Of a stretch of DNA of 30,763 bases, positions 4,771 through 20,991 are shown one piece after another. A program made the position numbers and the translations under genes. The stretch lies in IMG/VR virus record IMGVR_UViG_2718218434_000001; one strand, written 5' to 3'. Position 1 is the stretch's first letter; every line of letters starts with the position of its first letter. Source of the stretch: a virus. Taxonomy: Duplodnaviria > Heunggongvirae > Uroviricota > Caudoviricetes. The notes under the pieces are model-generated. The model saw only the letters and a program-made list of their open reading frames with translations, searched no databases and had not been told where the DNA came from.

Positions 4771-4827
4771 AAAACGGCGGCAGAGCAGTCACGGAGTAAA
4801 ACTGATACCGCCAAACGTCACCAGAAA
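4771..4827 (-). ncRNA. dicF: DicF small regulatory RNA (ftsZ-targeting), with 3' stem-loop and U-tract
   Basis: Minus-strand sequence TTTCTGGTGACGTTTGGCGGTATCAGTTTTACTCCGTGACTGCTCTGCCGCCGTTTTT matches the recalled DicF sequence; located between ydfB/C-like gene and dicB as in the dic operon. Confidence 0.8.
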
Positions 4828-5649: not shown

Positions 5650-5801
5650 CAGTCAGTGTTTCTGGCTAACCAGCAACGCGCGCCAGATTCGGTTTTAAAC
5701 GTTTTGCTTTTGGTATATGTCATCGCGGTGAACGTACCGTCCTGGTTGGGGAACACGCCACATACCAGAGATTCGCTGTTGCCAAGATCGATAGTATCCA
5801 T
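5649..5801 (-). CDS. ydfA: Small protein YdfA (50 aa)
   Basis: Internal Met start MDTIDLGNSESLVCGVFPNQDGTFTAMTYTKSKTFK... matches recalled YdfA; GAGGT RBS upstream of ATG at 5801. Confidence 0.7.
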   Translation of the reverse strand: MDTIDLGNSESLVCGVFPNQDGTFTAMTYTKSKTFKTESGARCWLARNTD

Positions 5802-5993
5802 GCTGACCTCATTTCCCCTTAACGCCGGGGTAGCGGAACTGTTTGCTGAGAACACCGTGCGGTGTGTTGATGGAGGTAATTTAGTTTTCTCATTATTTTT
5901 CGTCAAGGCTTTTTGATGAGAAAACTCAAGTATTGGCGCAAGATAAAGCCAATACATTGAAATGTAAGGCTTTAAAATTTTGTGAAGGGATGA

Positions 5994-6401
5994 TTATTGA
6001 TGCTTGTTGCGTTTGCGAGCCTCTAATAGCTCGGTGAACAGGCGATTAAAATTCTCAACGCGGGCGCGGAGTTCGCTGAGTTGTGCTTGTTGCTCTGATT
6101 TAGGAAGTGCGCGATACAAACGCAGCATCTCTAACTCATCTTCCGATAAGTCTAAGGCACTATCGAGTGAAACAGGGGGAGCTGGTGTTTTGTCCTCGTC
6201 GCCAAACAGTATCCAGGTTGGTGAACATTGCAATACCTCGGCGAGGCGATGCAAATTTTGCCCGCGCGGGGCTGTATGGTCACTTTCCCATAATGAAATT
6301 GATGAGCCAGATACGCCAGCAGCTTTGCTTAAACCGTTTTGACTTAAGCCTACCTGCTTACGTCTTTCTCTAATGCGTTGACCTAAAGTTTTCTCGTTCA
6401 T
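5994..6401 (-). CDS. dicA: DicA-like HTH (XRE-family) prophage repressor, 135 aa from internal Met
   Basis: HTH segment (LSQNGLSKAAGVSGSSISLWE) and LQCSPTWILFGDEDK motif shared with recalled DicA; divergent from a Cro-like gene. Confidence 0.75.
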   Translation of the reverse strand: MNEKTLGQRIRERRKQVGLSQNGLSKAAGVSGSSISLWESDHTAPRGQNLHRLAEVLQCSPTWILFGDEDKTPAPPVSLDSALDLSEDELEMLRLYRALPKSEQQAQLSELRARVENFNRLFTELLEARKRNKHQ

Positions 6402-6478
6402 ATTTAGATATCTTAATAACCCTTGACTTGAGATTCCTTGAGTGATTAGCATTGAGAAAACTCAATGCTGGAGGTGCG
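6402..6478. promoter_or_regulatory. Divergent promoter/operator region between dicA-like repressor and Cro/DicC-like gene
   Basis: 77-bp spacer between divergent start codons containing repeated CTTGAG / TTAGATATCTTAA elements; operator identity not verified. Confidence 0.45.
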
Positions 6479-6706
6479 ATGTTTAAATCAGACGTAATTA
6501 ATTTTTACGGTACGAAAGCCAAAGTAGCGAAAGCTGCTGGCGTTGACCCATCTGCTGTTTCTCAATGGCAAGAGCTGGTTCCTGAAGGTCGCGCGATGCG
6601 TCTACAGGAGGCATCTGGCGGCGAGCTTCTGTATGATCCCAAGGTTTATGACGAATATCGTAAGACGAAGCGGGCGGGGCGGTTGAACAATGAAAATCAC
6701 TCCTGA
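6479..6706 (+). CDS. dicC: Cro/DicC-like (YdaS-type) small HTH regulator
   Basis: GGAGG RBS 5 nt before ATG at 6479; translation MFKSDVINFYGTKAKVAKAAGVDPSAVSQWQ... is a Cro-like HTH; divergent to repressor. Confidence 0.65.
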   Translation: MFKSDVINFYGTKAKVAKAAGVDPSAVSQWQELVPEGRAMRLQEASGGELLYDPKVYDEYRKTKRAGRLNNENHS

Positions 6707-7211
6707 ACAGGCTCGTGAGGCTCTGGATGCCTGGATATGTCGACCAGGAATGACACAGGAGCAGGCGACGATATTAATCACTGAAGCATTCTGGGCTTTG
6801 AAAGAGCGCCCGAACATCGATGTTCAGCGTGTCACAGATGAAGGTGGCGCGGTTGATCAGCGAGCGCTTGGCGTTAATCGAGTGAAGATATTCGAACGCT
6901 GGAAGGCTATCGACACCAGGGATAAGCGTGAAAAGTTCACGGCGCTAGTGCCTGCAATTATGGAGGCTATCCGGATTAATGATTTCAGGTTGTATCGTGA
7001 AATTAGTGACGGAAAAAGCATCACGTACATGATCGCCGGGTTAAACAAAGAATATGGCGATGTGGTGGAATCCGGACTGCTTTTTGCTGATCCTGCCGTA
7101 GTGGATCGTGAAACTGACGAACTTATAGAAAAAGCAATTGCTTTCAAACTTGCGTATCGACAGCAATACCAACAAAAAGCTGGATGGAATTATGAGCCTT
7201 CTTTTTGCTGA
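6690..7211 (+). CDS. Early-region regulatory protein (YdaT-like / CII-position protein)
   Basis: 173-aa ORF overlapping the end of the Cro-like gene, in the position occupied by ydaT/cII in related prophages; family assignment uncertain. Confidence 0.45.
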   Translation: MKITPEQAREALDAWICRPGMTQEQATILITEAFWALKERPNIDVQRVTDEGGAVDQRALGVNRVKIFERWKAIDTRDKREKFTALVPAIMEAIRINDFRLYREISDGKSITYMIAGLNKEYGDVVESGLLFADPAVVDRETDELIEKAIAFKLAYRQQYQQKAGWNYEPSFC

Positions 7212-8157
7212 ACGCCCACTGGTTATAAACACACAGCTTGCGATGAAGATTGGCTTAAATGAAGCCATTGTGTTGCAGCAGTTGCATTACTGGTTGAGAG
7301 ATACCAATTCCGGCATGGAATGTGATGGTGTTCGCTGGATTTACAACACAACGGAACAATGGCTGGAACAGTTCCCATTCTGGTCAGAGTCAACGTTAAA
7401 GCGCGCGTTTGCAAGTCTGAAAACGCTGGGGCTTTTGCGTTGTGAAAAGCTCAATAAATCAAAGCGCGATATGACCAATTTCTACACGATTAACTATGGG
7501 AGCGAGCTTTTAGATGATGGCAAATTGAGCGAATCCATCGGTTCAAAATGCGCCGCTCCATCAGGTCAAAATGACACGATGGAAGAGGTCAAAATGAAAC
7601 GCTCCATTGGTTCAAAACGACCCAATGTCATCGGGTCAAAATGGCCCGATGATCCTACAGAGAATACAACAGAGATTACTACAGAGAATAAAAACACTTT
7701 TCGTCCGGAAGCTTCGCAACCGGACCCGCAGACGGCTGAACAAGATTTTTTAATCCGGCACCCTGGCGCAGTTGTGTTTAGTGCGAAAAAACGCCAGTGG
7801 GGTAGCCAGGAGGATCTGGCGTGTGCGCAGTGGATATGGGGGCGGATCGTGGGTCTCTACGAACAGGCCGCCAGTGATGATGGCGAGATCATGCGACCAA
7901 AAGAGCCTAACTGGACTGTCTGGGCCAATGATGTGCGCACAATGCGGATGCTGGATGGCAGAAGCCACAGACAAATTTGTGAAATGTTTGGTCGGGTACA
8001 GCGGGATCCATTCTGGGTAAAAAACATCATGAGCCCGTCAAAGCTCCGCGAAAAATGGGACGAACTGGTCATCCGCCTGGGGCGTTCACCTGTACAGCGT
8101 TGTGTTAATCATATTTCTGAACCGGATACAGAAATTCCGCCTGGTTTCAGAGGATAA
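7192..8157 (+). CDS. Replication initiator (O-like replisome organiser) with internal origin
   Basis: N-terminal region resembles phage replication-initiator N-domains; coding sequence contains five iteron-like repeats (IGSK peptide repeats) followed by AT-rich direct repeats, as in lambda O/ori. Confidence 0.6.
   Translation: MSLLFAERPLVINTQLAMKIGLNEAIVLQQLHYWLRDTNSGMECDGVRWIYNTTEQWLEQFPFWSESTLKRAFASLKTLGLLRCEKLNKSKRDMTNFYTINYGSELLDDGKLSESIGSKCAAPSGQNDTMEEVKMKRSIGSKRPNVIGSKWPDDPTENTTEITTENKNTFRPEASQPDPQTAEQDFLIRHPGAVVFSAKKRQWGSQEDLACAQWIWGRIVGLYEQAASDDGEIMRPKEPNWTVWANDVRTMRMLDGRSHRQICEMFGRVQRDPFWVKNIMSPSKLREKWDELVIRLGRSPVQRCVNHISEPDTEIPPGFRG
7534..7700. repeat. Candidate prophage replication origin: five ~14-bp iterons (consensus ATCGGTTCAAAATG) spaced 22-25 bp, then AT-rich TACAGAGAATA direct repeats
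   Basis: Iteron copies starting near 7537, 7559, 7585, 7604, 7629; TACAGAGAATA repeated at 7656 and 7678; seen directly in sequence. Confidence 0.55.
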
Positions 8158-8197
8158 GTTTTGATTTCAGGTCATGAGGTAATTTTAAGGGGGACTT

Positions 8198-8599
8198 GTG
8201 GCAAAAGTTTTTACACAAGAAGAGCGGGAAAAAATTAAAGGGCAGGTGGTGGAACTCGTGCGCCAGAGCGGTCGTGAGACGTTACGGCAACTGGAAGCTA
8301 AAACAGGTGCGACTAGATATCTGATGAGCGTTCTTGCCAGAGAGCTGGTAGCCAGTGGCGATGTATACAACTCCGGCTACGGGTTATTCCCATCTGAACA
8401 GGCGCGTAAGGACTGGCAAAACGCCCGCAAAAAACTCTCGAGGGCAAAGGTGAAGAAAACAGCTGTGGTTGATCCGGACCTTATCTGGTCGTTACCTGAT
8501 GGAGAAATACGTCGCTACGACAGTCGCCTAAACATAATCTGTCGCGAGTGCCGGATGAGTGAAGTTATGCAGCGCATACTGGCATTTTATCAGGGATAA
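8198..8599 (+). CDS. Hypothetical protein (133 aa), GTG start
   Basis: AAGGGGGA RBS before GTG; basic protein with no recognised family; occupies the slot where a helicase loader (P/DnaC-like) would be expected but is too small and dissimilar. Confidence 0.55.
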   Translation: MAKVFTQEEREKIKGQVVELVRQSGRETLRQLEAKTGATRYLMSVLARELVASGDVYNSGYGLFPSEQARKDWQNARKKLSRAKVKKTAVVDPDLIWSLPDGEIRRYDSRLNIICRECRMSEVMQRILAFYQG

Positions 8600-8696
8600 T
8601 GTTAGGTATTTTAGACGTTACTAGATTAAAAAGCATTAGTTCAGGAGTGAATTGACATTCTCATTTTTCATGGCACAGGGTAGATCTGGCGTGGTT

Positions 8697-8720
8697 GTCC
8701 GCTTTGTGCCAAAAGCGGAC
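8697..8720. terminator. Stem-loop (GTCCGCTTT-loop-AAAGCGGAC) between convergent genes; no U-tract
   Basis: 9-bp perfect inverted repeat seen in sequence between the 133-aa gene and the 595-aa gene; function as terminator is inferred. Confidence 0.3.
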
Positions 8721-8817
8721 ATCGAATAATTTCAGCAGCACTCAACCTTATTAACCAAATCGCCTCAACTCATATGGACATGCATCCGGAAGTGCCAACT
8801 TCGTAAACTTATTCACT

Positions 8818-10605
8818 TTAAGTCTGAGCCTCACTCTCTTGGCCATAAGTGGCTTGCCAGTATCTCGCCGTAGGGTTCATTAGAATGTGCAATACAAGCC
8901 ACCATGCAAAAATGCAGGGAGGTTGATTGTAGTAACCGGCAGGCACATATCCGTGAGCTAGTTGATTTCGTAAATCACCATAGATTTTATCTACCAGTAA
9001 GGCCTGAAGATTGCCAATTATGTCTACGCCGAAAGCTTCAATAATCAGTGGATTATCTAGTAATCCCTTGAGTCCATTTCGCTCTTGCGAACCGTCCCCG
9101 TGAAGCTGCGATGGTTCCTCACCTTTAATTTTAGCCACATATCTCAGACTATTTTCGATCTGGGGAATCAACACGTGGCATGCCGTCATAAAATCTCCAT
9201 TGAAACCGCAAACCATACCCTTGATGAAAAACTCTTCATGCCCAAACGGGATGAAGGGATGATTGATGAACATATCGCGAAAAAACGCCTCCGAGATTGG
9301 ATATTTCATTGTGATCTCATCTGTAGCAGGAATAATTTGCCCAGCTACTGCCAACTCATGGTCGATACGCATTCTCGTCATCATTATGGGCCAAATAACT
9401 GCCCCATTTGCATCATCAATCCCCAATCCTGCGGGTATGCGAGCAAGTGTCATTCCCTCATGATCAATATGTGTTGATCCAAACATCCAAGCTATGCTGT
9501 TGGCCTTTTGTTCTATTGCTTGAGCCTTAAGTCTCTCAATGCTGGTTGGCCGACAGACCAGCATCGCAAGTCTGAAAACCATATCAAACAAATCTCTTCC
9601 GACTACCCGACTCTTGGCTTGATGGACAATCTCACTAATATCTTGAGGGGGAGACTGAAGGATAGACATCTGGTGACGGGATTCGATTTGGTAATCACGC
9701 ATTTCTTCATACAGCGCAAGACGTTCTATTCGGGTTCCTGGAATATTAGCCAGTGCTTCAATAGCATTCTGCATGCAGGCTGCCGAAATCATACCGCCAT
9801 CTTGGAATTTTGATTCTTCCAGATGTGTATCGGCAAGAAGCCGCCAGAATTCAAACTGTGTATCTCTGTCACAGCACCTATTCGCAATCGGGATTGCGGT
9901 TTTACAGGCATCGACGGCAAATGAAAATAATTTTTGAGCCAGATAGTTTTTTGTCAGAAACAGGAGTTCCTGGGCAATAAAAGATGGCTCACTCACTTTA
10001 CAGTCGATATCGAGTTGCAGGAGTCGCAGCGGATAAGGTGAATCGCCTTGTTCTCTGGTACGTTCATACTCTGCTAGTAGATGTGCCGAAAGCTGATCAA
10101 ATTCATCCCTGAAATCAGTATTCTTTCGAAAAAAACAACACAGCCTAAGCGCACGCTCTAGGCGTTCTAAAGCACTAACCCACGTCCCTTGCGATGTCAT
10201 AATAGCTATACTGGACGCATAATAAGCACGGACTGCCAGCAAAGGAAAACGGATTCCACCAATTTTACGAACCCAAAGTGTATCAGCAATACGAGCTTGA
10301 AGTTCGGGTAGCTCTATCGTCGGGCAAAATTGAGAAAGTACCTCCAGCGACAACCCGTTAATGTCATCCGGAATTGCAGATCTACCTTGGCTGCTTTGAA
10401 AGCACGGACCAAATGGTACCTGTGGATTTTCGGGACGAAAGTGAAAACCGCAAATATGGGTTAGCAGTCTTATCTCCGCTCTTCCATCACCTAGGCTAGA
10501 AAGATACTTTGTGATATCAAAGCAGGTAACTGGCAGCTTACTCTGGATTAAGGGGGATAAATCAATAGTGTTAAGTTCGTCGAGGCTGATATTAATATCG
10601 TCCAT
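8818..10605 (-). CDS. Orphan 595-aa protein, unknown function; candidate single-gene anti-phage/abortive-infection effector with C-terminal HEPN-like R-x4-H motif
   Basis: Long ORF with strong RBS (AAGGTGA 4 nt before ATG); on the strand opposite to flanking early genes; flanked by noncoding spacers; C-terminal DLRNQLAHG fits the Rx4-6H HEPN signature; no other motif recognised. Confidence 0.8.
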   Translation of the reverse strand: MDDINISLDELNTIDLSPLIQSKLPVTCFDITKYLSSLGDGRAEIRLLTHICGFHFRPENPQVPFGPCFQSSQGRSAIPDDINGLSLEVLSQFCPTIELPELQARIADTLWVRKIGGIRFPLLAVRAYYASSIAIMTSQGTWVSALERLERALRLCCFFRKNTDFRDEFDQLSAHLLAEYERTREQGDSPYPLRLLQLDIDCKVSEPSFIAQELLFLTKNYLAQKLFSFAVDACKTAIPIANRCCDRDTQFEFWRLLADTHLEESKFQDGGMISAACMQNAIEALANIPGTRIERLALYEEMRDYQIESRHQMSILQSPPQDISEIVHQAKSRVVGRDLFDMVFRLAMLVCRPTSIERLKAQAIEQKANSIAWMFGSTHIDHEGMTLARIPAGLGIDDANGAVIWPIMMTRMRIDHELAVAGQIIPATDEITMKYPISEAFFRDMFINHPFIPFGHEEFFIKGMVCGFNGDFMTACHVLIPQIENSLRYVAKIKGEEPSQLHGDGSQERNGLKGLLDNPLIIEAFGVDIIGNLQALLVDKIYGDLRNQLAHGYVPAGYYNQPPCIFAWWLVLHILMNPTARYWQATYGQESEAQT

Positions 10606-11279
10606 GTCGTCACCTTGATGATTTGTTAATGCGGGGGCAACATTAATAAATGTACTTGAGACCGCAATTTGTCGATGGAGCCAACATTTATAACTATGTG
10701 CTTCTACCCTCTGAATTTTTACATGTGAATTGCTAGCTTGAATAGCTCTATCATTATATACGTGGCACTAAATTATGGCTGTTTTTCGCTCAAAGCGGAC
10801 TAGAAGGTTAGCTTGTGTCGGACTTTGCGTATTAAAAGAAGTGCTGGTGGTGACTAGTGGTTGTGCCCCATTTCCACAGAAAAAATCAGAGAAACTATAC
10901 CCAATAGTTGTATTGAATCACTGACGAGACAGCCTCATATTCATCAGGACTGGTCTACGTCCAATACAGGAGGTTGTGGTGCTGGTTCTCAAATGTGCGC
11001 TGGCTATTACGGCTGTAATGGCGATTTATTGTCTTGCTATTGTTCTTATGGATCGCCTTTCTGACTGATTTCATATTGGCGAGGTAACGGTAGTTAAGTA
11101 GAATGGCTGCGGGTGCTTGAGGCTATCTGCCTCGGGCATGAACACCAAAGGCAGATAGAGAAAAGCCCCAGTTAACATTACGCGTCCTGCAAGACGCTTA
11201 ACATTAATCTGAGGCCAATTTCATGCTAGACACATGTAGGTTAGCCTCTTACGTGCCGAAAGGCAAGGAGAAGCAGGCT

Positions 11280-11435
11280 ATGAAGCAGCAAAAGGCGATG
11301 TTAATCGCCCTGATCGTCATCTGTTTAACCGTCATAGTGACGGCACTGGTAACGAGGAAAGACCTCTGCGAGGTACGAATCCGAACCGGCCAGACGGAGG
11401 TCGCTGTCTTCACAGCTTACGAACCTGAGGAGTAA
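11280..11435 (+). CDS. hokD: Hok/Gef-family membrane toxin (HokD/RelF-like, 51 aa)
   Basis: Translation MKQQKAMLIALIVICLTVIVTALVTRKDLCEVRIRTGQTEVAVFTAYEPEE matches recalled HokD; structured leader upstream (10-bp inverted repeat CTATCTGCCT/AGGCAGATAG); no relBE upstream. Confidence 0.85.
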   Translation: MKQQKAMLIALIVICLTVIVTALVTRKDLCEVRIRTGQTEVAVFTAYEPEE

Positions 11436-11505
11436 GAGACCCGGCGAGGGAGAAATCCCTCGCCACCTCTGATGTGGCAGGCATCCTCAACGCACCCGCA
11501 CTTAA

Positions 11506-11530
11506 CCCGCTTCGGCGGGTTTTTGTTTTT
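11506..11530 (+). terminator. Rho-independent terminator after hok (CCCGC-TTCG-GCGGG + T-run)
   Basis: GC stem-loop followed by TTTTTGTTTTT, seen in sequence. Confidence 0.7.
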
Positions 11531-11651
11531 ATTTTCAACGCGTTTGAAGATCTGGACGGTGCCGGAATAGAATCAAAAATACTTAAGTAGCGCGCAGGGA
11601 TAAGAGGGATGGTCCCTTAAAGGGGAGAGCTAATTATCCGGAAGGATTCTG

Positions 11652-11903
11652 ATGATGAACATCGAAGAACTGCGTAAAATTTTTTGTGAAGATGGCCTCT
11701 ATGCTGTGTGCGTTGAAAATGGAAATCTTGTTAGTCATTACCGCATTATGTGTTTGCGAAAGAATGGGGCTGCGTTAATTAATTTTGTGGATGGTCGAGT
11801 GACAGACGGATTTATCTTGCGCGAAGGTGAGTTTGTCACTTCATTACAGGCACTGAAAGAGATCGGAATAAAAGCAGGCTTTTCAGCTTTTGCAGAAGAA
11901 TAA
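11652..11903 (+). CDS. Hypothetical small protein (83 aa), possibly Rem-like by position
   Basis: ORF with GGAAGGA RBS; sits between hok and ydfU where rem lies in K-12 Qin; sequence identity not verifiable from memory. Confidence 0.5.
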   Translation: MMNIEELRKIFCEDGLYAVCVENGNLVSHYRIMCLRKNGAALINFVDGRVTDGFILREGEFVTSLQALKEIGIKAGFSAFAEE

Positions 11904-11969
11904 ACTCATCTACAATCTTGCGCGGGGCTGAACTCCCGCTGAGTAACACCGTGCCACCGGAGAAAACCG

Positions 11970-12248
11970 ATGGCACGCAACGTAAAATATTACAATTCTG
12001 ATAATTCGCCCGTTCTTGCCTGCACGCACGAGCGGTATTCTCACGCATTCAAGTCTGAATGGTTCCAGCACCCTCCATGCACTGAAGAGCAGGCTGAATG
12101 GATAATTCAGTGTTACCGCAGGCGCGGATACGAGGTTAAGAAAGCTCTTAGTCTCGACTACCGTCACTGGATAATCTCAGTCAGATTGCCTTACTCCGAA
12201 CGCCCACCGAGTCCGTCCCGTACATTCCAGCAACGCATCTGGAGGTAA
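11970..12248 (+). CDS. Hypothetical small protein (92 aa)
   Basis: ORF with GGAG RBS; stop immediately precedes ydfU start; no family recognised. Confidence 0.45.
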   Translation: MARNVKYYNSDNSPVLACTHERYSHAFKSEWFQHPPCTEEQAEWIIQCYRRRGYEVKKALSLDYRHWIISVRLPYSERPPSPSRTFQQRIWR

Positions 12249-12249
12249 C

Positions 12250-13299
12250 GTGCGGGTATTACTTCGACCTGTTCTGGTACCGGAACTCGGGCTGGTGGTC
12301 GTTAAGCCGGGCCGTGAATCCATGCCGGTATTCCACAATACCCGGGTACTGGTGGAGCCGGAACCGAAAAGCATGCGTAATCTGCCGTCCGGGGTCGTTC
12401 CTGCCGTTCGCCAGCCGCTGGTGGAAGACAAAACATTGCTGCCGTTTTTCAGTAACGCACGGGTAATTCGTGCTGCTGGTGGTGCTGGTGCATTGTCTGA
12501 CTGGCTGTTGCGCCATATTAAATCCTGCCAGTGGCCACTCGGCGATTATCATCACAGCGAAACCGTTATTCACCGTTATGGTACCGGCGCAATGGTGTTG
12601 TGCTGGCACTGCGACAACCAGCTGCGTGACCAGACATCCGAATCACTCGAGCAACTTGCTCATCAAAACCTGTCAGCATGGATGATTGACGTCATCGGTC
12701 ACGCAATAAGCGGTACGCAGGAGCGTGAATTATCTCTGGCTGAATTATCCTGGTGGGCGGTCCGCAATCAGGTGGCGGACGCGCTACCGGAAGCGGTATT
12801 ACGTCGCTCGCTGGGATTACCAGCGGAAAAAAACTGCTCGGTGTACCGCGAAAGCGACATCGTACCGGGAGAGCAGACCGCCACCAGCATATTGAAACAG
12901 CGCACAAAAAATCTTGCACCGTTGCCTCACGCCCACCAGCAACAAAACCCATCACAGGAAAAGACGGTGGTAAGCATCACCGTTGATCCAGAGTCTCCGG
13001 AATCTTTCATGAAGCTGCCTAAACGTCACCGTTGGGTTAAGGAGAAATACACACGCTGGGTTAAGACACAGCCGTGTGCTTGCTGCGGTATGCCAGCCGA
13101 CGATCCGCATCATCTGATTGGTCACGGGCAGGGCGGAATGGGAACCAAAGCACATGATCTCTTTGTGTTGCCTTTGTGCAGAAAGCATCACGACGAGTTG
13201 CATACGGATACCGTGGCATTTGAAGAGAAGTATGGCTCCCAACTGGAGCTGATTTTTCGATTTATCGATCGCGCGCTGGCAATTGGTGTGCTGGCCTAA
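12250..13299 (+). CDS. ydfU: DUF968-family protein YdfU-like with C-terminal Cys/His (HNH-like) cluster
   Basis: 349-aa ORF, GTG start preceded by GGAGG; C-terminal CACCG...HHLIGHG...CRKHHDELH motif; position immediately upstream of Q as in nin regions. Confidence 0.7.
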   Translation: MRVLLRPVLVPELGLVVVKPGRESMPVFHNTRVLVEPEPKSMRNLPSGVVPAVRQPLVEDKTLLPFFSNARVIRAAGGAGALSDWLLRHIKSCQWPLGDYHHSETVIHRYGTGAMVLCWHCDNQLRDQTSESLEQLAHQNLSAWMIDVIGHAISGTQERELSLAELSWWAVRNQVADALPEAVLRRSLGLPAEKNCSVYRESDIVPGEQTATSILKQRTKNLAPLPHAHQQQNPSQEKTVVSITVDPESPESFMKLPKRHRWVKEKYTRWVKTQPCACCGMPADDPHHLIGHGQGGMGTKAHDLFVLPLCRKHHDELHTDTVAFEEKYGSQLELIFRFIDRALAIGVLA

Positions 13300-13316
13300 T
13301 TTTGTGGAGTAAGTTG

Positions 13317-13693
13317 ATGCGTGATATTCAGATGGTTCTTGAGCGTTGGGGGCATGGGCGGCTAATAATCATGAAGATGTGACCTGGTCGTCCATTGCCG
13401 CCGGTTTTAAGGGATTAATTCCTTCAAAAGTAAGATCTCGTCCGCAATGCTGTGACGATGACGCGATGATCATTTGTGAATGTATGGCTCGCCTGAAAAA
13501 AAACAACAGCGATTTACATGATTTATTGGTGGACTATTATGTCGGCGGCATGACTTTTATGGCGCTTGCACGTAAGCATGGGCGATCTGATTGTTGGGTT
13601 GGCAGGATGCTCCAGAAAGCTGAGGGCGTAGTGGAGGGCATGCTGATGGTGTTGGATCTCCGATTGGAGATGGATGCTGATTGTTCGAAATAA
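13317..13693 (+). pseudogene. Late antiterminator Q (Q82/QuuD-like), N-terminal frameshift at a G5 tract
   Basis: ATG at 13317 with GGAG RBS encodes [11 protein letters not shown] then stops after 21 codons; the rest of Q ([15 protein letters not shown]...) continues in the -1 frame from 13346 with no ATG; frames join at G run 13348-13352. Confidence 0.6.
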
Positions 13694-13699
13694 TTAAAG

Positions 13700-13790
13700 G
13701 AAAAGTTGCTGTCTGATTTTCATTAGTCTAACATTTTAAATGTTGGAATCGCAACGTAGTTATTATCATATAACAGCTTGTTTCCTGATT
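13700..13790 (+). promoter_or_regulatory. Candidate late promoter (pR'-like) / qut region downstream of Q
   Basis: TTGGAA ... TATCAT-like hexamers about 45 bp upstream of a strong terminator; by analogy with the lambdoid pR'-tR' arrangement; not verified. Confidence 0.3.
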
Positions 13791-13793
13791 TAG

Positions 13794-13821
13794 CCAGCCT
13801 CCCCAAAGGCTGGTTTTTTTC
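13794..13821 (+). terminator. Rho-independent terminator (tR'-like): CCAGCC-loop-GGCTGG + T7
   Basis: Perfect 6-bp stem followed by TTTTTTT, seen in sequence. Confidence 0.65.
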
Positions 13822-13848
13822 TAATAAGTATCATTTCGGGTGGGGATT

Positions 13849-14373
13849 TTATTGTTTAACCCATAATAGTTCATTGACATTGAATCCCAACTTTTGAGCG
13901 GTACGCACATAGTCTGCTTTTACATTATCTGGAATAGTTTGGGTCCTTGCCAGAATCCATAGGTATTCTCTGTTCGGACCACTGACAAGAGCATACTTAT
14001 ACTCATCATCCAGCTTGATTACATTATAGCCACCATAGAAGGGGCCAAAAAACGAAACTTTCAACGCTGCAGTTTTAGTATCTCCAGTAAAGTATGCTTT
14101 ACCTTCGCTCTCGCTCCATTTGTTTTTCGTTGGATCGTATCCACGGTTAAGTACGCGAATCCCTCCGTCGTTCCGTTTTTCATAAGTAGCGCTGACCTGT
14201 TCCAGACCACGTTCGAACCAGTTCTCGAGGCGAGCTATTTCATACCATTTTCCGAGGTAGCGGTTGGCGTCAAAATTTGTAATCGGCTGCACACCTTTAG
14301 GTGGTGTCGGGGCCTTACATGCTATAAGAGTGAAAGAGAGTGCAATGCCAGTCAACACAGGCCATAACTTCAT
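13849..14373 (-). CDS. blc: Outer-membrane lipoprotein Blc-like bacterial lipocalin
   Basis: Lipoprotein signal with lipobox (LIAC) and lipocalin motifs (NFDANRYLGKWYEIARL, KVSFFGPFYGGYNVI) matching recalled Blc. Confidence 0.85.
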   Translation of the reverse strand: MKLWPVLTGIALSFTLIACKAPTPPKGVQPITNFDANRYLGKWYEIARLENWFERGLEQVSATYEKRNDGGIRVLNRGYDPTKNKWSESEGKAYFTGDTKTAALKVSFFGPFYGGYNVIKLDDEYKYALVSGPNREYLWILARTQTIPDNVKADYVRTAQKLGFNVNELLWVKQ

Positions 14374-14565
14374 AATAAATCCTGTACTTTTGATAGTTGA
14401 GAGTAAGTATGAAAGATAGATGAGTACGACCGATCACTTAAAGAACTTTCCTACTATATTAGGAATAGTCAATAACAGAAAAATTGTCAGTGATGAAGCC
14501 AGAAAGGCAATTTAGTCCGTGCACTACAAAGTTTATGTGTTAATGAATTAGTCAAGGGGGAGGAA

Positions 14566-15525
14566 ATGATAAAAAAACCTGTGATTGGGATCAGCGGTTG
14601 TTTGGGCGGTTCTGCTGTTCGTTTTGATGGTGGTCACAAAAGAGATGACTTTTTAATGGACAAATTAGTGGAATGGGTAACATTCAGACCAGTATGTCCG
14701 GAAATGGCTATAGGGCTGCCAGTTCCGCGTCCTGCTCTACGACTTGTGCGCTCGAAGCAAGGAAATATACGGATGTGTTTCAGCCACGACCAGAATGAGG
14801 ATGTGACAGAGAGAATGACAGAGTTTAGTCGTTCTTATATGGACAAATTAAAGGATGTATCGGGGTTTGTGGTTTGTGCTAAATCTCCCAGCTGTGGCAT
14901 GGAGCGCGTGCGTGTCTATGATGAAAATGGTAATCGAGGTCGTAAAGATGGAGTGGGACTATTTACGAGCACTTTGATGGAAAAGTTTTCCTGGCTACCG
15001 GTTGAAGAGGATGGGCGATTACATGATCCAGTGCTTCGTGAGAATTTTATTGAAAGAGTTTTTGCTTTGCATGAGCTCAATCATCTTTACAAGGAGAAAT
15101 TATCAAGAAGAGAGTTATTAGCTTTTCATAGTCGTTATAAGCTTCAGTTGTTGGCGCATAGCCAGGCAGGCTATAAAGATATGGGACCATTTGTGGCTGC
15201 AATACACGAGTGGGCGGACCTTGAATCATACTTTGAGGTGTATCGTGATAATCTGATGGCGATTCTCAGAAAACCAGCATCACGTAAAAATCACACGAAT
15301 GTGCTGATGCATATACAGGGGTATTTTAGTAATTACTTAAGTACACGCCAGCGTAAAGAGTTGAGCGAGGTTATACTTAACTATCGCTTTGGCACATTGC
15401 CTCTTCTTGCGCCGTTGACTCTGCTGAAGCATTATCTGGGTGAGTATCCTAATGATTACTTGCTTACACAGAATTACTTCGATCCCTATCCGGAAGAACT
15501 GGCTCTAAGACTGATGGTGAATTAA
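14566..15525 (+). CDS. DUF523 (TudS-like Fe-S thiouracil desulfidase family) fused to DUF1722 (YbgA-like) protein
   Basis: N-terminal GISGCLGGSAVRFDGGHK with additional conserved Cys (CPE, SPSCG) typical of DUF523; strong GGGGGAGGA RBS. Confidence 0.7.
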   Translation: MIKKPVIGISGCLGGSAVRFDGGHKRDDFLMDKLVEWVTFRPVCPEMAIGLPVPRPALRLVRSKQGNIRMCFSHDQNEDVTERMTEFSRSYMDKLKDVSGFVVCAKSPSCGMERVRVYDENGNRGRKDGVGLFTSTLMEKFSWLPVEEDGRLHDPVLRENFIERVFALHELNHLYKEKLSRRELLAFHSRYKLQLLAHSQAGYKDMGPFVAAIHEWADLESYFEVYRDNLMAILRKPASRKNHTNVLMHIQGYFSNYLSTRQRKELSEVILNYRFGTLPLLAPLTLLKHYLGEYPNDYLLTQNYFDPYPEELALRLMVN

Positions 15526-15999
15526 CTGTATGCGATATCATCTGAAAGTGATGAGTTCCTGTATGCAGGATATTTACAATCGTAAAAACTACGCTATGAT
15601 GCCCATAGTGTCAGTTTGTATAAAAATCCTGTTCACGCTAAAGAAAACATTGAGATGCAATTTAATGTTGGTAAACATACCAGCCCCAAAAGATTTTATT
15701 CAATCTGTTTTTATATGAAGATATTTCAAGTGAATATTAAGAGCATATAATATTATTATTGCACGCAGCTATTATAATATAACAGATTAGTTTAATGATT
15801 TGTTTTTTGTGAGTTAAACACATGGTTTTATAGTTGTGATGCAATGAGATTTTCCTTATTGTTGAACTGGCGAATATTGATTTTCCACCTATACTTACCT
15901 GGTGTAACCCCAATGATATCAGGTGGATAATATGCCATACATATGTTCTATCATTTTGGTGTTGAACTCGTTTGTTGTCCGAATTGGTAAAGAAGATAT

Positions 16000-16644
16000 T
16001 TGTTTAAAAAAGGAAATGCTGTCCTCATTGAATACAATTTAAAAGATCTTTTTTCGTCAAATACAGATCATCTAATGATCGTAGATGTTGAGGAGAAAAC
16101 AGTTAATGATTTCTTTAAAAACTACACACTCTCACCTTTTTCTGTAAGAAGGTTTTATCCGTCATACTTGATAGTAGAATGTGAAGATTTTTCATTGTTA
16201 AGGAACTTGGTTGCATGCTTGAATTGTGATAGCAAAACCGTGGATGTAGTTAGAAATCAAATATCACTTGCATGTCTTGCTGTCTTATCTTCAGAGAAAA
16301 TAGTGCAAAGTTTTTTGTTCGGAAGTCTTAATAGCTTAGGTTGTAAAGTTAAGGCTATTATTCACTCGGATATCTCAGCGTCATGGAGACTTTGTGATAT
16401 ATCTTCAAGATTATATATGAGCGAGAGTTTGTTAAAAAGAAAATTAAAAGACGAAGGATTATCGTTTAGTAAATTAATTCTTGAAGAACGAATGATGATG
16501 GCGCAAAGATTATTGATCTACAGTAACCATACTGTCGGCAAGGTGGCGGGAATATGCGGGTATGACAATGCATCATATTTTGTAAGTGTTTTTAGAGGAT
16601 ATTTTGGTGTGCCTCCGCACCAATATTTATCAAGATTTTCTTAG
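16000..16644 (+). CDS. AraC-family transcriptional regulator (AppY-like); N-terminus uncertain (TTG start or truncated)
   Basis: C-terminal AraC HTH region (GYDNASYFVSVFRGYFGVPPHQY); preceded by a very AT-rich ~280-bp region. Confidence 0.65.
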   Translation: MFKKGNAVLIEYNLKDLFSSNTDHLMIVDVEEKTVNDFFKNYTLSPFSVRRFYPSYLIVECEDFSLLRNLVACLNCDSKTVDVVRNQISLACLAVLSSEKIVQSFLFGSLNSLGCKVKAIIHSDISASWRLCDISSRLYMSESLLKRKLKDEGLSFSKLILEERMMMAQRLLIYSNHTVGKVAGICGYDNASYFVSVFRGYFGVPPHQYLSRFS

Positions 16645-16892
16645 AAGATATGATGTGATGGCATTTTATAAAGTTATTTTTTGAAGTGTAAGATTATACG
16701 ATATTTTTAGCTACGCTAGAATAATTGCTGGCGTTTTTCTTTTTGAATAGATGTTCGGGCCTTACGCTAATGTAACTTCTTTCCTTCTTCGAACCAAACC
16801 GTGTACACCATCCGTTATCTGCGGAGGTGATCTTACCCAGCAATAGTGGACACGCGGCTAAGTGAGTAAACTCTCAGTCAGAGGTGACTCAC

Positions 16893-17192
16893 ATGACAAA
16901 AACAGTATCAACCAGTAAAAAACCCCGTAAACAGCATTCGCCTGAATTTCGCAGTGAAGCCCTGAAGCTTGCTGAACGCATCGGTGTTACTGCCGCAGCC
17001 CGTGAACTCAGCCTGTATGAATCACAGCTCTACAACTGGCGCAGTAAACAGCAAAATCAGCAGACGTCTTCTGAACGTGAACTGGAGATGTCTACCGAGA
17101 TTGCACGTCTCAAACGCCAGCTGGCAGAACGGGATGAAGAGCTGGCTATCCTCCAAAAGGCCGCGACATACTTCGCGAAGCGCCTGAAATGA
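16893..17192 (+). CDS. insE: IS3 transposase OrfA (InsE)
   Basis: HTH-containing orfA translation [29 protein letters not shown]... within IS3. Confidence 0.85.
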
Positions 17193-18055
17193 AGTATGTC
17201 TTTATTGAAAAACATCAGGCTGAGTTCAGCATCAAAGCAATGTGCCGCGTGCTCCGGGTGGCCCGCAGCGGCTGGTATACGTGGTGTCAGCGGCGGACAA
17301 GGATAAGCACGCGTCAGCAGTTCCGCCAACACTGCGACAGCGTTGTCCTCGCGGCTTTTACCCGGTCAAAACAGCGTTACGGTGCCCCACGCCTGACGGA
17401 TGAACTGCGTGCTCAGGGTTACCCCTTTAACGTAAAAACCGTGGCGGCAAGCCTGCGCCGTCAGGGACTGAGGGCAAAGGCCTCCCGGAAGTTCAGCCCG
17501 GTCAGCTACCGCGCACACGGCCTGCCTGTGTCAGAAAATCTGTTGGAGCAGGATTTTTACGCCAGTGGCCCGAACCAGAAGTGGGCAGGAGACATCACGT
17601 ACTTACGTACAGATGAAGGCTGGCTGTATCTGGCAGTGGTCATTGACCTGTGGTCACGTGCCGTTATTGGCTGGTCAATGTCGCCACGCATGACGGCGCA
17701 ACTGGCCTGCGATGCCCTGCAGATGGCGCTGTGGCGGCGTAAGAGGCCCCGGAACGTTATCGTTCACACGGACCGTGGAGGCCAGTACTGTTCAGCAGAT
17801 TATCAGGCGCAACTGAAGCGGCATAATCTGCGTGGAAGTATGAGCGCAAAAGGTTGCTGCTACGATAATGCCTGCGTGGAAAGCTTCTTTCATTCGCTGA
17901 AAGTGGAATGTATCCATGGAGAACACTTTATCAGCCGGGAAATAATGCGGGCAACGGTGTTTAATTATATCGAATGTGATTACAATCGGTGGCGGCGGCA
18001 CAGTTGGTGTGGCGGCCTCAGTCCGGAACAATTTGAAAACAAGAACCTCGCTTAG
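17189..18055 (+). CDS. insF: IS3 transposase OrfB (InsF), DDE integrase-type catalytic domain
   Basis: orfB in -1 frame overlapping orfA end, typical IS3-family organisation. Confidence 0.85.
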
Positions 18056-18095
18056 GCCTGTGTCCATATTACGTGGGTAGGATCAAGGTGAGGCT

Positions 18096-18311
18096 ATGAA
18101 ATCCATGGATAAGTTAACAACGGGCATCGCCTACAGCACCTCTGCAGGCAGTGCTGGCTACTGGTTTTTACAGTTGCTCGATAAAGTCACGCCCTCACAG
18201 TGGGCGGCAATAGGTGTATTGGGTAGTCTGGTATTTGGCATGCTGACGTATCTGACAAACCTTTATTTCAAGATTAAAGAAGACAGGCGTAAGGTTGCGA
18301 GAAGAGAGTAA
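18096..18311 (+). CDS. Class II pinholin (phage 21 S-like, 71 aa) with dual-start MKSM motif
   Basis: Translation [24 protein letters not shown]...RKVARRE matches recalled S21-type holins; RBS partly formed by the IS3 target duplication. Confidence 0.85.
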
Positions 18312-20216: not shown

Positions 20217-20579
20217 ATTAATATTAAATCGGATTATTTTTAGCGCTGAATGTGAAATTTAAATAAAAAGGACTCTTCCATGAGTCAAAATCCTTGAAAT
20301 CTTAAGGGTAAGATAAAAGGTCATTAGACAGAATGACACGTTTTATTAATAAATAAAGCTATTGTTTCATTCGTGTGTTTTTCTTTACAAAAGTAATCCT
20401 TGCTATGGTTGGTTAATCATGCGTTAATGGTGTTCTGGTTTGTTACAAAATTATCTGAAGCAGTCATTGTTATAATTTTATTATTTGTACCTCTTGAGAT
20501 TTCCTTGTTGGTTTTTCTCTCTGATATTTTTTTTCGGACCATTCTGCCCAAGGGCTAACTTCTTCAAAAGGTAATAATG

Positions 20580-20792
20580 ATGTCTAACAAAATGACTGGT
20601 TTAGTGAAATGGTTTAACCCTGAAAAAGGTTTTGGTTTCATCACGCCGAAAGATGGTAGCAAAGATGTGTTTGTCCATTTCTCAGCTATTCAGAGCAACG
20701 ATTTCAAAACGTTAACTGAGAATCAGGAAGTCGAATTTGGTATTGAGAACGGACCTAAAGGCCCCGCGGCTGTTCATGTTGTGGCACTTTGA
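20580..20792 (+). CDS. cspI: Cold-shock protein CspI-like (CspA family, 70 aa)
   Basis: Translation [38 protein letters not shown]... with RNP motifs; long AT-rich 5' UTR (20220-20576). Confidence 0.9.
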
Positions 20793-20991
20793 GGTAGAAA
20801 ATATTACAAACCATATTCACTTTAGATGCCCGTGTTGCCATGGTTCTCAGTATAGAACATCATCTTTTGATGTTTCTGACAGGAATCCTTTCGGGGCAAA
20901 ATGTATCTTTTGTAAATCAATGATGATTACATTTGATAATATTTCACAATACTTAAATGTTAGCCGTCTATCGTTAGATTTAAGAAAGTGA
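20776..20991 (+). CDS. Candidate small zinc-ribbon protein (CxxC...CxxC) downstream of cspI (YnfQ/YmcF-like?)
   Basis: ORF overlapping cspI end in another frame; contains CPCCHG and CIFCKS pairs; start codon uncertain. Confidence 0.3.

Follow-up and report, generated by a model that had tools for sequence, protein, structure and literature searches.

A partly decayed copy of a three-gene lipocalin, RudS, and AraC cargo block of lambda-like Escherichia coli phages

The slot between the Q antiterminator gene and the lysis genes of lambdoid phages is a described site of phage cargo, with the stx genes of Stx phages and the morons of Hendrix and Juhala as its examples. Such cargo follows the Q-controlled late promoter and terminator and precedes the holin gene, has a GC content unlike that of its flanks, and is followed by a terminator after the last gene; in Stx phages, tRNAs are often found in the slot as well. 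One gene family relevant here is represented by Blc of E. coli (b4149; PDB 1qwd, 2aco, and 3mbt), a lipocalin located in the outer membrane that binds lysophospholipids and fatty acids, and whose gene adjoins ampC in K-12. Among lambda phages of the infant gut, more than half are reported to carry blc as a moron (PMC6969025).

A second family comprises the RudS proteins, in which a TudS/DUF523 domain is fused to DUF1722. Jamontas et al. (NAR 2024; PMC11417400) found that these fusions strip 4-thiouridine (s4U) from tRNA and are poor at thiouracil salvage, and they regarded the DUF1722 fusion as the defining trait of this tRNA-directed class. Their set included RudS_vir, which is gp66 of phage 1H12 (H3V29_gp66); RudS_vir lowered tRNA s4U in E. 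coli, as did all RudS variants, and none of them gave the growth support that TudS gives (PMC11417400). Within the set, tRNA desulfidation was weakest for RudS_vir, which also showed the shortest lag on 4-thiouracil; its [4Fe-4S] cluster ligands are Cys12, Cys44, and Cys110 (Table 1 of PMC11417400). The same study supports a link between s4U and UVA and states that E. coli is without RudS homologues (PMC11417400). A third family is the group of prophage-encoded AraC-type regulators of acid resistance formed by PatE, PsrA, and PsrB of enterohemorrhagic E. coli (EHEC) O157:H7, AppY of prophage DLP12, and YdeO, which belong to a size class of 237 to 253 aa and have a C-terminal HTH_18 domain and AT-rich genes.

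We analyzed a window of 30,763 nucleotides (the whole stretch of DNA in IMG/VR virus record IMGVR_UViG_2718218434_000001), in which members of these three families lie together between Q and the holin gene as the cargo (moron) block of a lambdoid prophage. The features of the slot and its borders are the following.

13317..13693, plus strand: Q antiterminator gene of the Q21 type, frameshifted (PF06530, 8.6e-43)
13706..13734, plus strand: candidate late promoter pR' (TTGCTG-17 nt-TAACAT)
13792..13822, plus strand: tR'-like intrinsic terminator downstream of Q (terminator scan; 9-bp stem, then T7)
13849..14373, minus strand: Blc-subfamily lipocalin lipoprotein, predicted to be located in the outer membrane, 174 aa, intact (Lipocalin_2, 7.5e-43)
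14374..14565, no strand: divergent blc/rudS intergenic region (GC 0.34)
14566..15525, plus strand: predicted RudS-type tRNA 4-thiouridine desulfidase, 319 aa, intact (TudS/DUF523 fused to DUF1722)
15526..15931, no strand: AT-rich spacer upstream of the AraC gene (GC 0.315)
15932..16644, plus strand: AraC/XylS regulator pseudogene of the YdeO/AppY/PatE clade (start ATG 15932; remnant ORF 16000-16644)
16713..16744, plus strand: terminator-like hairpin with T-run after the AraC gene (terminator scan)
16828..18085, plus strand: IS3, 1,258 bp (transposase domains; blastn against the IS3 copy in strain 97.3)
18096..18311, plus strand: P21-type class II holin, which opens the lysis cassette and bounds the slot on the right (PF04971, 3.3e-34)

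Much of what a first-pass annotation had read from the letters of this locus holds. The three open reading frames lie in the Q-to-holin slot as it described, Pfam backs all of its domain calls (Lipocalin_2, DUF523 plus DUF1722, and HTH_18/HTH_AraC), a terminator-like hairpin stands between Q and the island, the Blc-like lipocalin gene runs convergently to Q, and the DNA before the AraC gene is AT-rich. In the window, however, the island consists of two intact genes and one pseudogene, and it no longer abuts the holin, since IS3 lies between them. The annotation's description of the genes as "non-phage" is also too strong, because a PHROG family exists for each of the three proteins and the carriers of the block include plaque-forming or induced lambda-like phages.

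The block resembles the known cargo of this slot in its position and in its composition, with a GC content of 0.31 to 0.35 before and across the AraC gene and 0.41 to 0.46 in blc and rudS, compared to 0.50 to 0.59 in the neighboring genes. A terminator-like site follows the last gene, and this hairpin is conserved in the phage copies. Unlike stx, the genes of the block are not toxin genes, and one of them, blc, is antisense to the late transcript. No promoter of blc or rudS passed our consensus scan; the promoters of both genes are presumed to lie in the divergent region between them, which is 96% conserved among phage copies. Upstream, the pR' candidate was read by eye and falls below the threshold of the promoter scan, so that its function as the late promoter is putative. 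The spacer from Q to blc is 96% conserved in phages IdasGreatGrand and 1H12, and the tR'-like terminator is invariant in the phage copies except for one T. The island contains no RNA genes at the Rfam gathering thresholds or by ARAGORN, including tRNAs of the kind typical for the Stx-phage slot, and no PADLOC model of a defence system matches the lipocalin or RudS.

The element that hosts the block is a defective, decaying lambdoid prophage of the Qin type at ydfJ. It carries dicB, ydfU, essQ, rrrQ, cspI, and pinQ, the window also holds DicF, sok, and a cspA element, and most morphogenesis genes have been deleted. At the left border, Q can be recognized as a Q21-type antiterminator by its domain and by the similarity of the intact allele to Q21 (PDB 6p18, E=5e-9), but the frame is broken in the window, where a run of G5 at 13348-13352 replaces the G6 of intact alleles (a single-base gap relative to strain 97.3). 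The sole remaining open frame is a 115-codon TTG ORF at 13346-13693, and this 115-aa form occurs on 12 other contigs, metagenome assemblies among them. At the right border, IS3 is flanked by a 3-bp target duplication (AGG at 16825-16827 and 18086-18088) and sits just upstream of the holin start, thereby cutting the block off from the lysis genes (the P21-type holin, a DUF1327 protein, and a phage lysozyme). The junction between the AraC gene and IS3 seen in the window is absent from complete RefSeq E. coli genomes.

The lipocalin passes the NCBIfam Blc subfamily model (312.6 bits against a cutoff of 267) and matches the Blc structure 3mbt at 8e-67. It shares with E. coli Blc a full-length Lipocalin_2 fold and a lipoprotein signal peptide with a lipobox (LIAC; MKLWPVLTGIALSFTLIA-C-K, from the translation) and a non-Asp residue at +2, the lipobox having been matched to the consensus by eye rather than with a predictor. 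The window's gene is prophage-borne, in contrast to the K-12 gene, and the identity to K-12 Blc is 58.6%, lower than the 75 to 80% found with rudS-adjacent chromosomal lipocalins of Enterobacter, Leclercia, and Citrobacter.

The middle gene encodes a 2-thiour_desulf/DUF523 domain (PF04463, 5.8e-40, residues 7-149) and, in the same polypeptide, DUF1722 (PF08349, 9.4e-40, residues 192-309), the C-terminal part being 48.7% identical to K-12 YbgA. The protein matches the TudS structure PDB 6z92 and PHROG 3275 (1.5e-224), and it aligns to 1H12 gp66 without gaps at 92% identity, with Cys12, Cys44, and Cys110 all present and identical. The two proteins thus share their length of 319 aa, both domains, and the three cluster ligands, as well as their surroundings, with Q and blc upstream and the AraC gene and holin downstream. 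They differ in 26 substitutions, and the window's protein is encoded by a defective prophage whose Q is broken, whereas 1H12 is a viable phage. Given that s4U removal from tRNA was shown for RudS_vir, we infer from this alignment that the window's RudS has the same activity. The earlier suggestion of modified-nucleobase metabolism for a TudS-like protein is right as to family, but the activity to be expected from the 92% identity to RudS_vir (PMC11417400) is erasure of s4U in tRNA and not free-base chemistry.

The third gene belongs to the YdeO/AppY/PatE clade, as indicated by a C-terminal double helix-turn-helix and by full-length alignments to YdeO, AppY, and Sakai ECs_0287. Identity is highest to the PatE-like ECs_0287 (47%) and much lower to AppY (30%) and YdeO (29%), and the protein falls below the cutoff of the YdeO model (127.5 bits against 348). 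The label "AppY-like" is thus apt for the clade but not at the level of an equivalog, and the gene is orthologous to none of PatE, AppY, and YdeO. Names attached to its relatives go no further than "AraC family" or "helix-turn-helix". The nearest solved structures are those of GadX, CsvR, Rns, and ToxT. ECs_0287 is the sole AraC-type gene in Sakai prophage Sp1, and by that position it is probably PatE; no homologue was found in Sakai prophages Sp6 and Sp7 or in the first part of Sp8, and the 247-aa ECs_1576 of Sp7, considered as a relative, proved unrelated. By analogy with ECs_0287, at 47% identity, the intact regulator may control acid resistance. The gene shares a prophage location with the PatE/AppY group, but it occupies the Q-holin slot instead of a prophage end and is a pseudogene in the window.

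The open reading frame at 16000-16644 had been taken for the AraC gene itself; the family stands, but the frame is the remnant of a longer gene that starts at ATG 15932 and suffers a -1 frameshift after codon 23, where the window has T3 at 15999-16001 and strain 97.3 and the phages have T4. The remnant comprises 214 codons with an entire HTH_18 domain (residues 135-211 of 214; HTH_18 2.2e-16, HTH_AraC 4.2e-11), and no Shine-Dalgarno-like sequence was seen before TTG 16000. The intact 237-aa protein occurs in exact form on 109 contigs. The T3 form of the frameshift was found in no other sequence, with T3 in 0 and T4 in 27 IMG/VR stretches, and could be a homopolymer sequencing error. The proposal that the regulator could rewire host transcription is accordingly inapplicable to the frameshifted copy of the window; intact alleles are found elsewhere.

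Losses of this gene extend well beyond the window. Other strains carry it disrupted in at least six further ways, and in strain 23AR0998 an IS3-family insertion occupies the AT-rich spacer upstream of it. The AraC gene has been lost on repeated, independent occasions, which is a new point and suggests that it is costly to the host. A phase-variation switch was considered for the T-run frameshift and rejected, as the runs are short (T4 and A6) and the remaining AraC lesions comprise IS insertions and one insertion of 26 bp, a pattern of decay.

The block as a whole is a common and already catalogued three-gene cargo of lambda-like E. coli phages, ordinary and largely known. It is found in 1,153 of 5,426 complete E. 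coli genomes (∼21%), with at least 80% of the block in 882 of these, and commensal E. coli HS has an intact copy. Among phages, the nucleotide identity is 94% in IdasGreatGrand and 92% over Q-blc-rudS in the 1H12/Lambda_2E9/ev series, where the AraC proteins are 76 to 86% identical. The exact lipocalin and RudS proteins each occur on at least 1,000 contigs. Between alleles, dN/dS is 0.09 to 0.20 for the lipocalin, 0.14 to 0.22 for RudS, and 0.09 to 0.22 across all three genes, values that indicate purifying selection on each of them.

We consider it highly probable that this is a widespread accessory block of lambda-like phages of which the window holds a decayed copy. In this explanation, lambda-like E. 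coli phages carry the block between the late promoter and terminator that follow Q and the lysis cassette, and where the phage is intact, the late transcript would extend through rudS and the AraC gene by readthrough of Q-modified RNA polymerase. The lipocalin gene opposes late transcription and would need a promoter of its own in the lysogen. RudS, with a [4Fe-4S] TudS domain and a tRNA-binding DUF1722, would convert s4U in tRNA back to uridine and thereby lower the near-UV sensitivity that s4U8 confers, and the AraC regulator might activate acid-resistance promoters such as those of gadE and hdeA. From the window's copy, at most the lipocalin and RudS could still be made, solely from their own promoters.

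Other readings were weighed against this one. It is rather unlikely that the block serves the phage and not the lysogen, with rudS and the AraC gene acting as late-operon genes only after Q antitermination, for example in translation after UV induction. In favor of this reading, the two genes point in the direction of late transcription and lie between the tR'-like terminator and the holin, our scan yielded no convincing promoter for either, and UV is an inducer of lambdoid prophages as well as a source of damage to tRNA that carries s4U. However, the antisense orientation of blc, the conserved terminator of the AraC gene, and the AT-rich DNA upstream of it, which is typical of silenced host-type regulators, fit this poorly; the block also stays intact in many defective prophages incapable of lytic growth, and in the window the route is closed, since Q is broken and the block is cut off from the lysis cassette. 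That the entire island is inert debris of a dead prophage, with none of the three genes active in the strain, is unlikely: the lesions in Q and the AraC gene, the IS3 insertion, the loss of morphogenesis genes, and the IS elements that other strains have at several further sites within the block would agree with such a reading, but blc and rudS are intact in the window, and their exact proteins are abundant and evidently under purifying selection.

The remaining two alternatives concern single genes of the accessory block. The short 4-thiouracil lag and comparatively low tRNA desulfidation of viral RudS (PMC11417400) may point to a salvage role, and with all three cysteine ligands of a TudS domain in place, the DUF523-DUF1722 protein might act mainly on free bases and nucleotides, desulfurizing thiouracil or 4-thio-UMP for salvage or detoxification like stand-alone TudS; we regard this as quite improbable given that no RudS supports growth as TudS does, that all lower tRNA s4U, and that the DUF1722 fusion marks the tRNA-directed class (PMC11417400). 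Least credible is a regulator that is still functional in the window, either because T3 is a sequencing error or because an N-terminally truncated protein from TTG 16000 or ATG 16075 continues to bind DNA and to regulate host genes. Two homopolymer deletions, without any substitution, are the sole differences between the window and strain 97.3 over 3.9 kb, which is the typical pattern of homopolymer errors, T3 is absent from IMG/VR whereas T4 occurs there 27 times, and the remnant retains its complete HTH_18 domain. Against this, the accompanying G5 deletion in Q is genuine, as it is seen on 12 independent contigs, loss of the gene is the norm for this allele, and TTG 16000 lacks a visible Shine-Dalgarno-like sequence.

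The window's copy itself carries limited weight, as the block is annotated in more than 1,000 E. coli genomes, the lipocalin is listed as a common lambda moron, and a near-identical phage ortholog of the middle gene has already been characterized biochemically. The prevalence of prophage rudS in ∼21% of complete E. coli genomes nevertheless contrasts with the statement that E. coli lacks RudS (PMC11417400), and strains may therefore differ in s4U and in their near-UV response.

A second new point is that the lipocalin and RudS genes form a divergent chromosomal pair in many Enterobacteriaceae. Of 64 enterobacterial species loci, ∼40 have a lipocalin gene, with a product 75 to 80% identical to that of the window, upstream of and divergent from a 66 to 76% identical rudS, and no YdeO-type AraC gene was found near these pairs. 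Alignment of the blc-rudS spacer with that of the Citrobacter chromosomal pair revealed no conservation, and therefore no shared promoter can be inferred. The AraC gene differs from the pair in GC content (0.335 compared to 0.43 to 0.44) and exceeds it two- to six-fold in dS. It looks as if both genes of the pair were acquired together from an enterobacterial chromosome, and the AraC gene would have joined it separately. The pairing offers a testable hint on the physiological role of bacterial Blc-type lipocalins. A bolder extension, which we hold to be improbable, is that the lipocalin and RudS are a functionally coupled pair spread by phages into E. coli, a species without a rudS of its own, and altering its lysogens, accompanied by a costly and repeatedly lost AraC gene; if true, the lysogens, around a fifth of complete E. 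coli genomes, would have altered tRNA s4U levels and an altered near-UV or oxidative-stress tolerance, and the co-travelling regulator would be a burden to the host that IS3 insertions and small indels recurrently disrupt. The arrangement of the chromosomal pair varies: the lipocalin and rudS genes are directly adjacent in Citrobacter sedlakii, and a MlrA/BluR-like MerR regulator lies between them in the Enterobacter pair.

The slot between the Q antiterminator gene and the holin gene of the window carries a block of three cargo genes, encoding a lipocalin (blc), a DUF523-DUF1722 protein (rudS), and an AraC-type regulator. The layout and the three family assignments proposed in the first-pass annotation were both confirmed, by ORF listing and Pfam for the former and by Pfam for the latter.

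13317-13693, plus strand: Q antiterminator gene (PF06530), frameshifted
13792-13822: hairpin and T-run 3' of Q
13849-14373, minus strand: lipocalin, 174 amino acids (Pfam Lipocalin_2, 7.5e-43)
14566-15525, plus strand: RudS, 319 amino acids (N-terminal 2-thiouracil desulfurase/DUF523, 5.8e-40; C-terminal DUF1722, 9.4e-40)
16000-16644, plus strand: AraC-type ORF, a remnant (HTH_18, 2.2e-16)
16713-16744: hairpin and T-run 3' of the AraC-type ORF
16828-18085: IS3, 1,258 bp, with a 3-bp AGG target duplication
From 18096: P21-type holin gene, then DUF1327 and phage lysozyme genes

GC content is 0.50 to 0.59 in the flanks and 0.41 to 0.46 in the lipocalin and DUF523 genes, with a minimum of 0.31 to 0.35 over 15400-16800.

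The block is common, and it has already been annotated and partly characterized. The 3.1-kb sequence has matches in 1,153 of 5,426 complete Escherichia coli genomes (at least 80% covered in 882 of the 1,153), its alleles fall into two main classes (≥99% and about 94% identity), and an intact copy is present in the commensal E. coli HS. In INPHARED, the block occurs in 12 phage records of the lambda-like 1H12/Lambda_2E9/ev series, and it is also present in IdasGreatGrand; each of the three proteins has its own PHROG family, and the exact lipocalin and exact RudS sequences are each found on at least 1,000 contigs. Mathieu et al. (PMC6969025) had already listed blc as a moron, carried by over half of the lambda phages that came from E. 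coli of the infant gut. The little that the present analysis adds concerns three points: the lipocalin and RudS genes are syntenic, a species described as having no RudS carries one on prophages, and the AraC gene has been lost repeatedly. Values of dN/dS between alleles are 0.09 to 0.20 for blc, 0.14 to 0.22 for rudS, and 0.20 to 0.21 for the AraC gene, and selection therefore maintains all three genes across the whole lineage. The block was also recovered on two short contigs (L083 and L088) of a Saccharibacteria MAG, "Candidatus Nanosynbacter sp." D148_maxbin.008, where Q, lipocalin, RudS, AraC, and holin have 92 to 98% protein identity; an E. coli prophage block in this MAG is most likely a binning contaminant.

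Jamontas et al. (NAR 2024, PMC11417400) define RudS as a fusion of a TudS desulfidase with DUF1722 that strips 4-thiouridine (s4U) from tRNA. One of the proteins tested in that study, RudS_vir, is H3V29_gp66 of Escherichia phage 1H12, with cluster ligands Cys12, Cys44, and Cys110; its gene sits between a "Lipocalin Blc" gene and a 243-amino-acid hypothetical gene, in a stretch that immediately follows Q and precedes the holin gene. Aligned with gp66, the window RudS shows 92% identity and no gaps across all 319 residues; it retains the three cysteines, and Glu46, Arg55, Ser107, and Ser109 are also present when the sequence is read by offset from the RudS_KT residues in PMC11417400. In E. coli, every RudS variant, RudS_vir included, lowered the s4U content of tRNA, and overexpressing RudS reduced the growth delay caused by UVA; thiouracils were not the primary substrates (PMC11417400). 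The first-pass annotation had suggested a TudS-like protein of modified-nucleobase metabolism; the TudS domain stands, and given the identity to RudS_vir, the conserved cysteines, and the published activities, the window protein is better read as a predicted tRNA s4U eraser. Thiouracil salvage is a minority possibility; RudS_vir was the least active variant on tRNA and had the shortest lag on 4-thiouracil (PMC11417400). The same paper states that E. coli has no TudS/RudS homologues, which is true of K-12 but not of the 1,153 of 5,426 complete genomes in which we found a prophage-borne rudS.

The lipocalin scores above the NCBIfam cutoff for the Blc subfamily (312.6 versus 267 bits), matches solved E. 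coli Blc structures at about 1e-65, and in translation has a lipoprotein signal peptide with the lipobox LIA-C, with only 58.6% identity to K-12 Blc. A scan for rudS homologues with one genome per species recovered 64 loci, with chromosomal homologues at 66 to 76% amino acid identity in Citrobacter, Enterobacter, Leclercia, Kluyvera, Klebsiella, Pectobacterium, and others. A lipocalin 75 to 80% identical to the phage protein is encoded upstream and divergently at about 40 of these 64 loci. The two genes are directly adjacent in Citrobacter sedlakii (L037, 5292-6957), in the same layout as in the window, and in Enterobacter (E. cloacae, L052, 4021-6960) they are separated by a transthyretin-like gene and an MlrA/BluR-like MerR regulator, an arrangement hinting at light- or stress-linked regulation. 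None of the chromosomal lipocalin-rudS loci examined has a YdeO-type AraC gene. Because of these divergent chromosomal pairs, the absence of such a regulator beside them, and the far greater AT richness and two- to sixfold-higher synonymous divergence of the phage AraC gene relative to blc and rudS, the block is best described, on sequence comparison, as a putative captured chromosomal pair to which a regulator was added separately. An alignment of the blc-rudS intergenic DNA of the phage and Citrobacter pairs showed no conservation.

The regulator had been called AppY-like, a description that holds for the clade and not for orthology: with its frame restored, the 237-amino-acid AraC protein has 31% identity to EnvY, 30% to AppY, and 29% to YdeO, and its best NCBIfam model, YdeO, matches full length at 127.5 bits, far under the 348-bit equivalog cutoff. 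Identities are 86% to the IdasGreatGrand protein, 76% to 1H12 gp67, and 47% to a 247-amino-acid group. That group shares 98% identity with Sakai ECs_0287, which is the sole gene of AraC type in prophage Sp1 (at thrW). By position, ECs_0287 would be PatE (z0321), which is encoded on O-island 8 and, like PsrB, is described as an activator of gadE and hdeA (review PMC10877973). Among solved structures, the closest are those of the GadX DNA-binding domain, CsvR, Rns, and ToxT.

The window copy of the block is degraded, and the most "interesting" of its genes survives as a pseudogene. Only two single-base deletions, and no substitutions, distinguish the window from strain 97.3 over 12159-16045. One shortens G6 to G5 at 13348-13352 and throws the true Q start, ATG 13317, out of frame; the same truncated 115-amino-acid Q recurs as a gene call on 12 further contigs, among them AP027528.1 and several metagenome assemblies, and this lesion is therefore a circulating allele rather than a sequencing error. 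All 12 of these contigs keep an intact 237-amino-acid AraC gene. The other deletion shortens T4 to T3 at 15999-16001, so that the frame is lost after codon 23 of an AraC gene whose start, by alignment with phages IdasGreatGrand and Lambda_2E9, is ATG 15932 (MPYICSIILVLNSF...); the ORF at 16000-16644 that had been taken for the regulator is the downstream remnant of this gene. The T3 form has no exact match in IMG/VR versus 27 for T4, and the exact repaired protein is encoded on 109 contigs; T3 is either private to the window's strain or a homopolymer error.

Loss of this regulator is recurrent. Among 56 contigs encoding its identical C-terminal 189 residues, the lesions differ and fall within the initial ∼120 bp of its gene: a −1 and a +1 change in an A-run, a −1 change at 16050, a 26-bp insertion, and IS3 at about 15943 and at about 16030, with IS3 occurring in both orientations (L003 and L021 to L030; window-equivalent 15932-16075). 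Counting the T-run deletion in the window, there have been at least seven independent losses, a count that comes from a sample picked for 5' disruption and is not a rate. In other strains, IS elements also occupy the blc-rudS interval, the spacer ahead of the AraC gene, and the DNA past that gene (IS3 family, IS903B, and IS1A copies in or beside the island of other E. coli, at L095 2206-3368, L096 1081-2004 and from 4591, and L097 3379-4076), and the AT-rich portion of the block resembles a landing zone for IS elements. The IS3 of the window separates the island terminator from the lysis cassette, having inserted a few bases before the holin start codon, and its junction with the AraC gene is absent from all complete RefSeq E. 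coli genomes searched.

Late read-through follows from established Q biology and the gene order. When the phage is intact, Q (of the Q21 type) would load onto RNA polymerase at the late promoter, and the modified polymerase would pass the terminator at 13792-13822, transcribe rudS and the AraC gene, and reach the lysis genes. Since blc is antisense to this transcript, it would have to use its own promoter; a promoter consensus scan gave nothing convincing for any of the three genes. In the window, with Q and the regulator broken and IS3 blocking the route to the holin gene, all that would remain possible is expression of the lipocalin and RudS from promoters of their own.

A megablast search of complete E. 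coli genomes, together with the gene annotation of its best hit, places the window in a Qin-type defective lambdoid prophage at ydfJ, the genes of which include dicB, ydfU, essQ, rrrQ, cspI, tfaQ, and pinQ. Its Rfam matches fit this assignment, comprising DicF sRNA (4775-4826, minus strand), sok antitoxin RNA (11111-11285, plus strand), and a cspA-type thermoregulator 5' UTR (20422-20838, plus strand). The exact arrangement of the window occurs in none of the complete E. coli genomes in the collection searched. The early prophage region also encodes, within a segment (5767-12158) absent from strain 97.3, a 595-amino-acid protein with DUF7380 and DUF4209 (8818-10605, minus strand) that matches the PADLOC candidate antiphage defense model PDC-S39 (E value, 1.9e-102).
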